From: a virus
Taxonomy: Duplodnaviria; Heunggongvirae; Uroviricota; Caudoviricetes
Reading direction: 5' to 3' (one strand)
IMG/VR virus record: IMGVR_UViG_2778261154_000007
Coordinates: 1-18,507 of that record
Length of the DNA stretch: 18,507 nt
Shown here: in pieces, positions 8,414 through 18,507 of the stretch
Position numbering within the stretch: position 1 is the first letter of the stretch
Layout of the letters: every line of letters starts with the position of its first letter
Notes under the pieces: model-generated
Databases searched by the model: none
Seen by the model: only the letters and a program-made list of their open reading frames with translations
Told to the model about the DNA's origin: nothing
Translations under genes and position numbers: made by a program

Positions 8414-8734
8414 TTTTATGTCCTTTGCATTTGTTCAGATAGCCCTGTGTTCAGCAGGGCGGTCAGGTACTTGAACACCGTGCAAAGTCGGCCCGTATCC
8501 TTAACCTTTCGGCTGTTTTTCGGTATACGCGCTACCCGACCATATCTGAAAAATGGACATAAAAAATCCGCATGACTGACGGGTGCGGTTTCCGCTTTGC
8601 AAGGTGTGTTCAGCACCATGAAGCGGAATATAGCCCCGTTAATGCGGTGTTGTCAAATCATGTAGGCCTTATCTTGCTGTAAGCCGCGCCATTCGGGCTT
8701 TTCCCCACATTTGGGGAAAACTATCTTGTCAAAA

Positions 8735-9641: not shown

Positions 9642-10172
9642 TTAGCCACGGTTAACCTCCTGCGGCGGTTCTGGTAGCTGCATCCAGTGGGTTACCTCTT
9701 TGAGATACAGGTCTTCGCCATCACCGTCATCCCAAGTGGGATTGCCATCATTAAACCAGTCGCCATATACGCCGACCTGAGTGTTGGGGATGTTTGGTGG
9801 GTAGTTGTTTTTAAAGTCAGCTGCTAACACATAGCATTGTCGCTCTCCCATTTCTGGCATTCGCTCACTACAGCTTATCCAGGCATCCGGAGTTACCGGC
9901 ACTGGCTGGGCGGTATAAAGCGGTGTTATATCTGCCCGAAAATTACATGCTTTATGCAGCCGCACCCACCGTTCGACTTCTGCTTTGTCAGAATACATAC
10001 CAGTGAACGTGTTATATTCACGGTCAATTTGCGTGAAGGTTACCTTCCACGCCACCGGCTCTGCTGTCAGCGATGCCAGAGCAATTTCATAAGCACGGCG
10101 TTCAACATTGTCTCGCACATCCAAACTGCTGATACGCTCTTTGATTTCTTTAATCAGTTCTTTGTCGTTCAC
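9642..10172 (-). CDS. DUF551-like phage protein, 176 aa (GTG start)
   Basis: C-terminal W-rich segment WISCSERMPE...VTHWMQLPEPP resembles the DUF551 domain common in lambdoid early-left regions. Confidence 0.5.
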   Translation of the reverse strand: MNDKELIKEIKERISSLDVRDNVERRAYEIALASLTAEPVAWKVTFTQIDREYNTFTGMYSDKAEVERWVRLHKACNFRADITPLYTAQPVPVTPDAWISCSERMPEMGERQCYVLAADFKNNYPPNIPNTQVGVYGDWFNDGNPTWDDGDGEDLYLKEVTHWMQLPEPPQEVNRG

Positions 10173-13098: not shown

Positions 13099-13231
13099 TT
13101 TTGGGAACTCCTGGCTGATTAAGTACGTCGATGAGTCGTTTCCATCCGTCACGTAATTTACGGGTGATTCGTTCAAGTAAAGATTCGGAAGGGCAGCCAG
13201 CAACAGGCCACCCTGCAATGGCATATTGCAT
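13091..13231 (-). CDS. cIII: cIII (FtsH inhibitor / CII stabiliser), 46 aa
   Basis: Manual translation of the minus strand: MQYAIAGWPVAGCPSESLLERITRKLRDGWKRLIDVLNQPGVPKNG, matching lambda CIII through its conserved central helix; RBS AGGAG upstream. Not in the track (below 60 aa). Confidence 0.8.
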   Translation of the reverse strand: MQYAIAGWPVAGCPSESLLERITRKLRDGWKRLIDVLNQPGVPKNG

Positions 13232-13264
13232 GGTGTGCTCCTTATTTACGCTTTAAATTGCTCC

Positions 13265-13336: not shown

Positions 13337-13960
13337 CTATGCGGCCTCGGAAGGAAGTCCAATCATCTTATTCAAATCTTCTACCCGTAAAGCAGGAAGT
13401 GCTGTACTTGCTTTATCTGCTTCTTTTGGTAGCAATTCTTTGCTTTCAGGCCAAACTTCAATAAGTCGCTTAACTGTTGTGACTGAGTTCAAAGCAGCCC
13501 ATACATTTGATTCGATATCCTTTTTCCTGGCTTTAAGTTTTTGTTGCAATGCGCAGATTTCATCAAACCTTTTTGTTATTTCGTGTTCTGCGCTAAACAT
13601 GCATTTATCTCTGGTCGGAGTAGGGAGCAATATATCTTCGCCGTTGCCGTCTTTCCCATATGAATACCATCCAACCCTTCTGCCAGATACAGTCAGATAA
13701 ATTGAAGTAGAACGAACATCGCATGAGTAAAATGAACATCCCATCTTTTCAAGTTCTTCACTTATAGCTACCAACTTGGATGATAACTGATCCACTTCCT
13801 CAGTTTTCTTCTTCCCGCCAAACGCAACAACTCTGGCGTCAAGTGCAAGCTGGTTCTTTAGCTTTGTTACTTCTTCAAGTTCAGTGAACACCCCGGACTT
13901 AATTAAAGCGTTGCGTGCTATTACTTCTTTTATTCTCGTTGTTAAGCGGATTGATGACAT
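13337..13960 (-). CDS. Hypothetical protein of unknown function (207 aa) in the N-cIII accessory slot
   Basis: Start moved to ATG 13960 (MSSIRLTT...), preceded by GAGG; no TM segments, predicted helical/coiled regions; no motif I recognise. Confidence 0.55.
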   Translation of the reverse strand: MSSIRLTTRIKEVIARNALIKSGVFTELEEVTKLKNQLALDARVVAFGGKKKTEEVDQLSSKLVAISEELEKMGCSFYSCDVRSTSIYLTVSGRRVGWYSYGKDGNGEDILLPTPTRDKCMFSAEHEITKRFDEICALQQKLKARKKDIESNVWAALNSVTTVKRLIEVWPESKELLPKEADKASTALPALRVEDLNKMIGLPSEAA

Positions 13961-14768: not shown

Positions 14769-15206
14769 CTATTTGTTTGAGAATTTTAGAAGTTGAAAAA
14801 GTATGATGCTTATATGCATCATTGATGAAGCTGACAGGCCGATCGATAAGGATGGCAACAAGGCAATTGGTTGCTTACTGGTGGCCATTAAAAACAAACC
14901 CATAAAAAAAACAATGCCAAGTTCCGCAAAGGTCAGTGCATACAGAATGATGACAGATGTCATATATCCGTAAGCCTTTACTTTTTGCATGTTTTTTCCT
15001 CTGATGCCGATGACGAATGTCAACGCGGCAATGAGTATTGCGATAGTAGTCCCTGCATATGAAGATATAGCTGCGCCCAGCGCGTCTCTGTGCTCGGTGA
15101 ACGAAATTGATGAGGCAACGCTACGGAAAATGCAGTAGACGACAATAGTTAAAAGTATTGGTAAAACGAATAGCAATACGCCGGGAACGATCCTGTGCTC
15201 TCTCAT
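14769..15206 (-). CDS. rexB: RexB-like integral membrane protein (145 aa, four predicted TM helices)
   Basis: Occupies the rexB position (between pL/oL and rexA, same strand as cI). Four hydrophobic segments (LLFVLPILLTIVVYCIF; TTIAILIAALTFVIGI; YMTSVIILYALTFAELGIVFFMGLFLMA; LSIGLSASSMMHISIILFQLL). Size is close to lambda RexB (about 144 aa). Confidence 0.6.
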   Translation of the reverse strand: MREHRIVPGVLLFVLPILLTIVVYCIFRSVASSISFTEHRDALGAAISSYAGTTIAILIAALTFVIGIRGKNMQKVKAYGYMTSVIILYALTFAELGIVFFMGLFLMATSKQPIALLPSLSIGLSASSMMHISIILFQLLKFSNK

Positions 15207-15236
15207 GCTTCCTCCATCACCCTTAGGTATTCACTC

Positions 15237-16067
15237 TTACTCGTCTTCACAAAAATCTTTATAACTTTTCGTTATGACATTTTTCATTCTTATATAGCAA
15301 ATTTCCATTTCCTCGGCAATTTCTTCATTTGTCGATTTGTAAATGTTGGCGCTGATATGCCCCTTGCTTGAAAGGTAGTAGTCAGTTAACAAATCAGCTG
15401 CGTACTCCTTTGCTTTAAGGTGTATGTCGCTATGAGAATCATCGGCATTACGAATCAGTTCCTTTGACATGTTGCTAATATTTCTCATTCTTTTGGGTTT
15501 TATTGTTATTTCTATACCTTCAAGAAGCTCTTCTTCGATAGTTTCTATCCCGGCGGCCCTCAGTAGAGGAGAAAAAAGCTTGGAGCCAGACTCAACTCTT
15601 AAGGTTGTTCTACCGATGAACTCCATGTCGAGAGCATCATCTCTGGTTACGTCTCTCATCAGAGGTTCTAAACATAGTTTGAATGGATTTGTTATGTTCA
15701 ATTTATTAGATAAGTAAATTTCAAGCTCACGAATTCTTGGCCCGTGTTGAGTGCAGGCGTAACCAACGATGCCATCCTTGATCAACAGGAATGATGGAAA
15801 TGCTAGCGTTTCGTCACTACCTAATACGTTTTTAATTTCATCGACTGATAGTGTGGTTTTATTGACCCTTTTAACCAAGTCTGAGTCGTATGTTTTTGTT
15901 ATTAAATAACATTCTCTGCTGATGTGATGAGCGAATATAAAGTAATCATCAATCTCTAAGGCATTATTTTTTGCTTTGATTACCTGTTCGGATAAGCCTG
16001 ACACCAAATCAATAGGGAAACGTTCCTTACCGTTTTGTTGATAGAAAGCGTAAAAATTAAGTTTCAT
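15237..16067 (-). CDS. rexA: RexA-like soluble protein (276 aa), partner of the membrane protein
   Basis: Occupies the rexA position immediately downstream of cI on the same strand. Size is close to lambda RexA (about 279 aa); conserved-looking blocks FPSFLL, LEPLMRDVTRDD, FIGRTTLRVE, YYLSSKGH, EEIAEEMEICYIRMK. Appears much more divergent from lambda than the flanking cI and N. Confidence 0.6.
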   Translation of the reverse strand: MKLNFYAFYQQNGKERFPIDLVSGLSEQVIKAKNNALEIDDYFIFAHHISRECYLITKTYDSDLVKRVNKTTLSVDEIKNVLGSDETLAFPSFLLIKDGIVGYACTQHGPRIRELEIYLSNKLNITNPFKLCLEPLMRDVTRDDALDMEFIGRTTLRVESGSKLFSPLLRAAGIETIEEELLEGIEITIKPKRMRNISNMSKELIRNADDSHSDIHLKAKEYAADLLTDYYLSSKGHISANIYKSTNEEIAEEMEICYIRMKNVITKSYKDFCEDE

Positions 16068-17331: not shown

Positions 17332-17628
17332 ATGGTTCGTGCAAACAAACGCAACGAGGCTCTACGAATCGAGAGTGCGTTGCTTAACAAAATCGCAATG
17401 CTTGGAACTGAGAAGACAGCGGAAGCTGTGGGAGTTGATAAGTCGCAGATCAGCAGGTGGAAGAGGGATTGGATTCCAAAGTTCTCAATGCTGCTTGCTG
17501 TTCTTGAATGGGGCGTCGTTGACGACGATATGGCTCGATTGGCACGACAAGTTGCTTCGATTCTCACCAATAAAAAACGCCCGGTGTGCAAGACCGAGCG
17601 TTCTGATCAAATACAGATGGAATTCTGA
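17332..17628 (+). CDS. cII: CII transcriptional activator (98 aa)
   Basis: Start at ATG 17332 (RBS TAAGGA), not the track start 17272; MVRANKRNEALRIESALLNKIAMLGTEKTAEAVGVDKSQISRWKRDWIPKFSMLLAVLEWGVVDDDMARLARQVA... matches lambda CII. Confidence 0.9.
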   Translation: MVRANKRNEALRIESALLNKIAMLGTEKTAEAVGVDKSQISRWKRDWIPKFSMLLAVLEWGVVDDDMARLARQVASILTNKKRPVCKTERSDQIQMEF

Positions 17629-17660
17629 GGGAATTACTGGATCAATCCACAGGAGTCATT

Positions 17661-18419
17661 ATGACAAATACAGCAAAAATACTCAACTTCGGCAGAGGTA
17701 ACTTTGCCGAACAGGAGCTAAGAGTGGCTGATATCGATGATGGTTACACCAGATTCGCTAACGAGCTGCTGGAAGCTATCGCAAGTGCCGATTTAACCGC
17801 TCGCCAGTTGAAAGTTATGCTGGCCTACGTCCGGAAAACATATGGATTCAATAAGAAAACAGATCGAATAGCCGATGAGCAAATTGCTCAGTTAACAGGA
17901 CTATCAAGGCAGAATGTTAACAAGGCTAAAAAAGAACTGATTTCAATGAATTGCCTGTTTATGGATGGAAATCAAATCGGTGTAAACAGGGAGGTATCTG
18001 CGTGGCAATTCAGCAAGTGTCTCCAAGTTAGCAACTTTGTCTCGAAGTTAGAGACAAAAAATGTCTCCAAATTAGAGACACTCAATGTCTCGAAGTTAGA
18101 GACACACAAAAGACATTCTTTAAAGACAAAAGAAAATATTAATAAACCCCCTATATCCCCCAAAAAAGTTTCTCAGAAGTTCGACCCGCTAGAAACAGAG
18201 TTGCCTGATTGGTTATCAGCAGAAACATGGTTGTCGTGGGTTACCTATCGCAAGGAGATAGGTAAGTCGATCAAGTCTAAGCAAAGCGTCACTCAGGCTA
18301 TCAACGTTCTAAGCAGAAGTCTGGAGAAGGGATATACACCTGAAGAAATTATAAACCAGAGCATCGCCAGTGGTTGGCAGGGGATTTTTGAGCCCAAGAC
18401 TCCAAAGGGGAAATCTTGA
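17661..18419 (+). CDS. O: Replication initiator O-like protein (252 aa) with lambda-like N terminus and divergent iteron-binding and C-terminal regions
   Basis: N terminus MTNTAKILNFGRGNFAEQE resembles lambda O; 33-nt spacing from cII as in lambda; the gene contains the iteron array; shorter than lambda O (about 299 aa as I recall). Confidence 0.75.
   Translation: MTNTAKILNFGRGNFAEQELRVADIDDGYTRFANELLEAIASADLTARQLKVMLAYVRKTYGFNKKTDRIADEQIAQLTGLSRQNVNKAKKELISMNCLFMDGNQIGVNREVSAWQFSKCLQVSNFVSKLETKNVSKLETLNVSKLETHKRHSLKTKENINKPPISPKKVSQKFDPLETELPDWLSAETWLSWVTYRKEIGKSIKSKQSVTQAINVLSRSLEKGYTPEEIINQSIASGWQGIFEPKTPKGKS
18018..18150. repeat. Replication origin iterons inside O: four ~19-bp repeats TGTCTC(C/G)AA(G/A)TTAGAGACA plus an AT-rich tract
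   Basis: Repeats at 18018-18035 (degenerate), 18038-18056, 18062-18080, 18086-18104 with 24-bp periodicity; each is an inverted repeat TGTCTC...GAGACA; AT-rich 18120-18145. Confidence 0.7.
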
Positions 18420-18507
18420 ACCGCCCCGGGTTTCCTGGAGAGTGTTTTATCTGTGAACTCAGGCTGCCAGATCATCGTTTCCGATGGAAGCATAATAAGC
18501 TTTTTCT

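Follow-up and report, generated by a model that had tools for sequence, protein, structure and literature searches.

Close to the end of the 18,507-nucleotide stretch of DNA analyzed here (referred to as the window), an open reading frame (ORF) at positions 17661 to 18419 of the plus strand raises the question of whether it encodes a natural hybrid of the phage replication initiator O, in which an N terminus resembling that of lambda O is joined to a C terminus that differs from it and is shorter. The locus very probably corresponds to the replication initiator O of a lambda-immunity prophage, in the allele of the mEpX1/N7 type and with the origin inside the gene, that has been truncated by the insertion of an IS1203/IS629 element. 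The O allele, the arrangement of O with a DnaC-type gene, and IS1203/IS629 are all already known, and the locus contains nothing that is new in kind.

Identity of the O Gene

The ORF is genuine. Its ATG start codon is preceded by an AGGAG ribosome-binding site (RBS) and, as originally predicted, it encodes 252 amino acids. Residues 21 to 115 (17721 to 18005, plus strand) form the N-terminal origin-binding domain, which was identified as Phage_rep_O (PF04492) in a Pfam search of the window protein, with 124.2 bits against a cutoff of 28.7 and an E value of 3e-36. This score above the curated threshold places the protein among the lambdoid O-type initiators. The NCBIfam model TIGR01610 (phage_O_Nterm) identified the same domain with 108 bits against 45.5 in a search with the intact homolog rather than with the 252-residue form, and phrog_678 covers the protein of the intact homolog from end to end.

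The O-derived coding sequence (17661 to 18416, plus strand) represents codons 1 to 252 of a 281-codon allele, as shown by the match to phrog_678 and by comparison with annotated genes. Over nucleotides 1 to 756, the identity is 99.3% with the annotated O gene of mEpX1 (NC_019709 gp46) and 99.2% with that of N7 (MH717096 ORF41), and over nucleotides 49 to 756, it is 99.2% with the O gene of CurroJimenez_Bas106. The same allele is present in many E. coli prophages, and the proposed hybrid is thus a gene that had already been annotated. In its intact form, found in phages of the mEpX1 and N7 type, it comprises 846 nucleotides, encodes 281 amino acids, and overlaps at its end with the start of a gene for a DnaC-like helicase loader. 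The window gene is assigned to this allele because the two are nearly identical in the N-terminal domain, in the iterons, and in the C-terminal domain alike. The O genes of mEpX1, N7, and CurroJimenez_Bas106 have identical iterons, an identical A+T-rich tract and C-terminal domain, and the same place after cII; however, their products have 281 residues and their ends overlap the DnaC-like loader gene, whereas the window gene is cut by IS1203 after codon 252 and lacks both the full length and the terminal motif ENFxxKDYGxTExPxW.

The gene is preceded by lambda-type cI, cro, and cII. It is located directly after cII, as are initiators of PR operons, and the contig then ends in IS1203. The lambda-type cII gene (17332 to 17628, plus strand) was identified by gene calling and by the Pfam family Phage_CII (9672 to 9968 in locus L006), and an alignment matches it to the end of lambda cII.

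Truncation by an IS1203/IS629 Element

The final segment of the window, 18417 to 18507, is identical in 91 of 91 nucleotides to the terminal end of annotated IS1203 copies, including the terminal repeat TGAACCGCCCCGGG, and corresponds to the right end (IRR side) of IS1203/IS629, a member of the IS3 family, on the minus strand. The terminal inverted repeat and the adjoining sequence both agree with membership in IS1203/IS629; these 91 nucleotides are the end of the element, and its transposase genes and far end lie beyond the window. The complete IS1203 reference copy used for comparison (locus L004) has 1310 bp and a 3-bp target duplication (CTT). In this copy, the end that is seen in the window is distal to the transposase start, and the transposase reading frame would therefore run on the minus strand, outside the window. 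IS1203/IS629 is very common in E. coli, the same end having been matched in more than 4000 of the 5,426 complete genomes of this species.

The window and the intact alleles remain collinear up to 18416 (...GGGGAAATCT) in a three-way alignment, and the correspondence stops exactly there. Past this position, the intact alleles read CAACCGAGGCC... and the window reads TGAACCGCCCCGGGTTTCCTGG.... The stop codon of the 252-residue ORF, TGA at 18417, belongs to the IS, whose terminal inverted repeat begins with these three bases. The shorter C terminus, which the original prediction had regarded as a property of the allele, is therefore the result of a truncation by 29 codons: the native length of the protein is 281 amino acids, and the lost tail of 29 residues is QPRPQQRAMQENFTAKDYGQTEMPSWAQE. 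Very probably, IS1203/IS629 inserted after codon 252, an event that supplied the stop codon, removed the last 29 residues including the conserved terminal motif, and placed some 1.3 kb of IS sequence between O and whatever lay downstream. A target duplication of TCT (18414 to 18416) is expected at this insertion, and the far IS junction is predicted to read GGGGCGGTTCA-TCT-CAACCGAGGCCGCAG.

The window corresponds to one entire contig of a short-read draft assembly (NJNE01000084.1 of GCA_002467185.1, 18,507 bp), with IS sequence at both ends, and the exact O-IS junction was detected in none of the 5,426 complete E. coli RefSeq genomes. Such observations might point to an assembly artefact, namely, a chimeric contig end produced by repeat collapse, in which case O would be intact. 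We consider this very improbable, since the switch from O to IS sequence occurs precisely where the IS terminal repeat begins, which is what true transposition produces, and since the identical junction and the identical 252-residue product were found in an independent Logan assembly of another run, the protein being carried by 4 contigs. Furthermore, real insertions normally show up in short-read assemblies as contigs that break off within a multi-copy IS. A genuine insertion thus being preferred, the absence of its junction from the complete RefSeq E. coli genomes suggests that the event is probably confined to one lineage.

Also very improbable is a native, naturally short hybrid O of 252 residues with a distinct short C terminus, the next replication gene of which would lie just past the window. 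Although the frame remains open through codon 252 and is closed by a stop codon, and although the C-terminal half is truly unrelated to lambda O, intact alleles that are 99% identical continue for another 29 codons, and collinearity with them is lost at one base, which is the start of the 100%-identical IS1203 terminal repeat that contains the stop codon. In addition, all other members aligned have between 262 and 325 residues, as compared to 252.

The consequences of truncation by IS1203/IS629 can be assessed in the light of lambda O mutants. An allele of lambda O cut by a stop codon that causes the loss of the last 35 codons was found to be replication defective and non-complementing, and Oam205, in which the last 5 residues are removed, is a classical O-null amber mutant (PMC6022878). 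By analogy with these mutants, and given the conservation of the tail that was lost and the IS that separates O from the downstream region, the copy of the replication module in this genome is most likely defective. The origin itself is intact, and O and loader proteins supplied in trans by another prophage could still fire it. The host strain would thus carry a lambda-immunity prophage with a disabled replication module, which may be cryptic. For genome annotation, it matters that a frame which runs into the terminal repeat of an IS at the edge of a draft contig, and finds its stop codon there, can mimic a new short allele.

The 5' End of O and Its Mosaic Joints

The cII stop codon (17628) and the O start codon (17661) are separated by 32 nucleotides, exactly as in lambda (38653 and 38686), which agrees with the lambda-like spacing noted in the original prediction. 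The first 20 or so residues of O had also been described as lambda-like. Indeed, the first 17 residues agree with lambda O at 16 positions, the exception being residue 17 (E in the window, G in lambda), but the homology is not limited to this segment, since residues 1 to 115 share 60% sequence identity with lambda O in BLASTP. At the DNA level, sliding identity and a list of mismatches define a tract with 100% identity to lambda (17649 to 17709, plus strand) that comprises the RBS and nucleotides 1 to 49 of O. Identity to lambda DNA is about 60% by 17750 and 33 to 50% from 17887 onward, across the presumed recognition-helix region.

An oop-like antisense cassette was identified on the minus strand (17574 to 17686). 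It consists of a promoter, pO, with a -35 element TTGAGT at 17686 to 17681 and a -10 element CATAAT at 17663 to 17658, and of an intrinsic terminator with a 12-bp stem (17604 to 17574, minus strand) that is faced by pO. This promoter is the only sigma-70-like promoter found between 17200 and 18507. It is established that pO overlaps the N-terminal end of O (PMC6022878), and in the record of phage 434, the annotated oop RNA begins at the first base of O and extends into cII. At gathering thresholds, Rfam gave no hit to the oop RNA within the window, its only matches being Lambda_thermo and sRNA-Xcc1 at other positions. Because the lambda-identical tract holds the oop promoter arrangement, the lambda-identical 5' end of O is best read as a shared cII-oop-pO cassette rather than as a piece of lambda O function. 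The possibility that it represents a functional subdomain of lambda O was rejected, as the identical tract includes only the RBS and 49 nucleotides and coincides with the oop promoter.

The 5' mosaic joint is located at about 17710 to 17715, corresponding to approximately nucleotide 50 of O, where different 5' variants rejoin the common body of the gene at ...GGAGC(G/T)AAGAGTGGCTGATATCGATGATGG. This rejoining point is shared by three variants, namely, the lambda-like 5' end of the window, mEpX1, and N7, the GIY-YIG-associated variant of E. coli B1_2, and the variant of Hafnia phage Pocitis76. A second joint follows the origin: the O gene of Pocitis76 shares nucleotides 54 to 503 at 85.7% identity, whereas amino acid identity in the C-terminal domain amounts to only about 56%. 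The prediction of a gene that is mosaic relative to lambda, with its breakpoint inside O, is thus borne out, and so is the modular logic on which it was based. The O locus provides a clean example of three-part modularity, composed of the oop/pO cassette, an iteron-specific N-terminal domain, and a loader-specific C-terminal domain.

Several E. coli prophages were found to possess a gene for a 214-residue GIY-YIG nuclease between cII and the same O allele (in B1_2 at 1734 to 2378 of locus L005, and hits H36 to H39). This gene starts at the normal start of O, with the same RBS and ATGACA, and replaces the first 17 or so codons of O, which then begins with MSLAEVFYLPKSEPVEQE.... It looks like a free-standing insertion of the homing-endonuclease type at the 5' mosaic joint.

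Iterons, Origin, and Presumed Binding Specificity

Four palindromic iterons of about 19 bp had been proposed to lie within O. The repeats exist, and three of them are perfect, whereas the first copy is degenerate. In iteron 1 (TGTCTCCAAGTTAGCAACT, 18018 to 18036), the left arm is intact, whereas the right arm deviates at 3 positions. Iteron 2 (TGTCTCGAAGTTAGAGACA, 18038 to 18056), iteron 3 (TGTCTCCAAATTAGAGACA, 18062 to 18080), and iteron 4 (TGTCTCGAAGTTAGAGACA, 18086 to 18104) match TGTCTC-N7-GAGACA exactly and are 24 bp apart, and the 18.5-kb window contains no other exact match. Copies of the palindrome with 3 mismatches are by count not above chance in the 18.5-kb window (7 hits as compared to 5.7 expected); iteron 1 was included in the array because it is in register, 20 nucleotides upstream, and is 100% conserved in Pocitis76.

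The array is followed by an A+T-rich tract (18105 to 18165; GC content of 0.30 in windows covering 18080 to 18179), the presumed unwinding element, which encodes the interdomain linker and can be aligned with the A+T-rich region of lambda (CACAAAAGACA...AAAGA.AAAAGAAAA). An origin of palindromic iterons and an A+T-rich tract is thus found inside the coding sequence of the initiator itself, as in O-type initiators, and its layout matches that of the annotated lambda ori: both have four palindromic repeats of about 19 bp in the middle of the gene, a near-identical spacing (20/24/24 bp here and 20/24/23 bp in lambda), and a similar A+T-rich tract thereafter. In contrast, the sequence of the iterons differs, as had been recognized, with TGTCTC-N7-GAGACA in the window and TCCCTC-N6-GAGGGA (the ATCCCTCAAAACGAGGGA type) in lambda.

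Just as implausible as a natively short O is the view that the repeats merely encode a repeated linker peptide (NVSKLET, three times) and have no origin function, the origin being elsewhere. The repeats are indeed translated into 8 residues in tandem, but a repeated peptide would not need palindromic DNA, and every unit is a palindrome. Relatives keep the arms while spacer bases and encoded residues change, the position, number, spacing, and flanking A+T-rich tract of the repeats match the lambda ori, and the repeat sequence covaries with the DNA-binding region across alleles. Taking the repeats as iterons, the three full copies of Pocitis76 keep the TGTCTC and GAGACA arms, and the spacer bases change in two of them, altering the encoded peptide from KLET to KSET and SLET. 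The same arms recur with other spacers in the Morganella phage IME1369_01. Sequence comparison therefore indicates that the palindrome arms are under constraint at the DNA level.

Across the alleles compared, the repeat sequence tracks the helix-turn-helix region and not the C-terminal domain. Repeats with TGTCTC arms occur together with the helix region LSRQNVNKAK in the window, Pocitis76, and the Morganella phage; the helix region ILPHKCSAAK of Klebsiella GZ7 is accompanied by TTACCCG...CAGGTAA, LKVKHVSEAV of Gifsy-2 by TCCCCGAAAACGGGGA, and LPVKRCNEAK of lambda by TCCCTC...GAGGGA, the repeats of the latter two being both of the TCCC(C/T) type. It is established that different O-type proteins bind different iterons inside their own genes (PMC8022706), and lambda O was shown to consist of an N-terminal DNA-binding domain, a flexible linker, and a C-terminal P-binding domain (PMC6022878). 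The winged-helix domain of the window protein would form a specificity class of its own and presumably binds to the TGTCTC-N7-GAGACA palindromes located mid-gene. By analogy with lambda, O dimers would bind to each palindrome, the O-some assembled on the iterons would destabilize the A+T-rich tract, and the C-terminal domain would then bring in the complex of loader and DnaB. A literature search retrieved no biochemical study of the TGTCTC-N7-GAGACA origin class or of its O-DnaC-type interface, both of which have been sequenced and annotated; a report on the cotransfer of interdependent genes in lambdoid phages (PMC9836094) names mEpX1 and contains nothing on O, loaders, or iterons.

The C-Terminal Domain and Its Presumed Loader Partner

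The claim that the C terminus does not resemble lambda O was confirmed. BLASTP against lambda O detected no similarity beyond residue 115, and the tblastn matches to lambda, 434, and Stx phages cover residues 1 to 115 only. Full-length collinear identity to lambda O and its iterons, which would have contradicted the original prediction, was accordingly not observed. Residues 182 to 246 (18204 to 18398, plus strand) match phrog_18589 with an E value of 1.6e-53 and form a domain of the Gifsy/Rac-YdaU type that is presumed to recruit the loader; approximately the same residues also match the C-terminal part of phrog_678. Homologs of this domain were detected by tblastn in phages of Klebsiella, Hafnia, and Morganella, in Gifsy-1/2, and in ydaU of Rac, and W184, W193, G241, and P245 are among its conserved residues. 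Pfam has no family for this domain, for Rac YdaU, or for the tail. A PDB sequence search with the intact homolog gave no match below an E value of 0.2, and the single-sequence AlphaFold2 model of the 252-residue protein had a mean pLDDT of 43, with values of about 65 to 72 only for residues 173 to 237 (three helices), a quality insufficient for comparing folds.

The window protein has neither a C-terminal domain homologous to residues 160 to 299 or so of lambda O nor the lambda iteron sequence in its gene. As both features differ, the gene is not lambda O sensu stricto; judged from its sequence, it belongs to the Phage_rep_O initiators and is expected to work like lambda O. The resemblance to lambda O includes the gene position and the identical RBS and first 49 nucleotides with the oop promoter. 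The differences concern the presumed recognition region, the unrelated C-terminal domain, and the partner protein, which in the relatives is DnaC-like and not P.

In all nine relatives with this C-terminal domain that were inspected (mEpX1, N7, E. coli 10035776-3, Pocitis76, GZ7, ST11-VIM1phi8.2, IME1369_01, Gifsy-2, and Rac), the gene following O encodes an AAA+ loader of the DnaC/IstB type and not lambda P. The expectation that the downstream gene is probably not lambda P therefore holds for the relatives, but in the window, an IS lies directly downstream and no replication gene is present. Lambda-type, DnaC-type, and DnaB-type partners of O have all been documented in lambdoid prophages (PMC2669165). 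In the intact phages, the partner brought in by the C-terminal domain is presumably a DnaC-like AAA+ helicase loader, in place of lambda P.

Homologous C-terminal domains, with 39 to 48% amino acid sequence identity over about 85 residues, are also present in Gifsy-1/2, Rac (YdaU/YdaV), phiP27-type phages, and the O157 Sakai prophages Sp4, Sp10, and Sp12, where a DnaC/IstB-type AAA+ gene is located immediately downstream. These modules differ in having other iterons, such as that of Gifsy-2, and shorter loaders that lack a CEKHG...CPxC extension. Their extreme C-terminal tails differ as well, with ...P..IPxGFRG in the Gifsy/Rac type as compared to KDYGxTExPxW in the mEpX1 type. The alleles from E. 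coli, Hafnia, and Klebsiella all retain the tail motif ENFxxKDYGxTExPxW, even when they differ in the linker before it.

The DnaC-like loaders of this O class were observed to have an N-terminal extension of about 60 to 100 residues, with a zinc-ribbon-like CEKHG...(S/T)xCPxC motif (L001 6831 to 7739, L002 5831 to 6691, L008 2884 to 3732, L012 1836 to 2702, and L014 1854 to 2699). The short loaders of Gifsy-2, Rac (YdaV), and the Morganella phage have no such extension, and the O tails of these modules differ or are missing. The ENFxxKDYGxTExPxW tail is thus found in O of six out of six modules with a CEKHG...CPxC loader and in none of the three with short loaders, a pattern that is drawn from few related genomes and reflects co-occurrence, not contact. 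It is conceivable, but unlikely, that the tail of O serves as the docking site for loaders with the CEKHG extension, and that the truncated O would bind the origin without recruiting a loader. If so, the truncated protein might be dominant negative, occupy origins, and interfere with superinfecting phages of the same ori type.

Contig and Host Context

Positions 1 to 76 of the window match the end of an IS2 element with 100% identity (annotated as an IS3-like element IS2 family transposase). Both contig ends are thus inside insertion sequences, as is typically seen when an IS-rich E. coli/Shigella genome is assembled as a draft from short reads. The prophage adjoins the ybhC region of the host, and the host flank contains ybhH, ybhI, ybhJ, and ybhC, and many other E. 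coli genomes have an integrase gene beside ybhC; we take the host region that adjoins ybhC to be the lambda attachment region.

The search for the O-IS junction gave a single two-piece hit, in strain B1_2, which was discarded because O is intact there and the IS insertion that follows it is another one. In this strain (locus L005, 3344 to 4557), an intact copy of the O allele is followed, after about 135 bp, by a different IS3-family element. This element is directly followed by the portal gene, and the loader and the nin region have therefore been lost there. It is an independent case of IS-associated decay of the same replication module.

Further elements were observed in the remainder of the window. 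In the early-left region of the prophage, a match to the Rfam family sRNA-Xcc1 (RF02221) was found at 8453 to 8541 (minus strand), with 68 bits as compared to a gathering score of 53. The Rfam element Lambda_thermo, the cIII thermoregulator, was detected at 13186 to 13244 (minus strand) with 88.5 bits, which fits a cIII of the lambda type. Between N and cIII, a gene not present in lambda (13337 to 13960, minus strand) encodes a 207-residue protein of the Nmad5 family, with a putative function in nucleotide modification. Pfam also identified RexB (145 amino acids) and RexA (276 amino acids) at 14769 to 16067 (minus strand), beside a near-lambda cI. Both proteins look clearly diverged from those of lambda, which suggests a variant rex exclusion cassette under lambda immunity.
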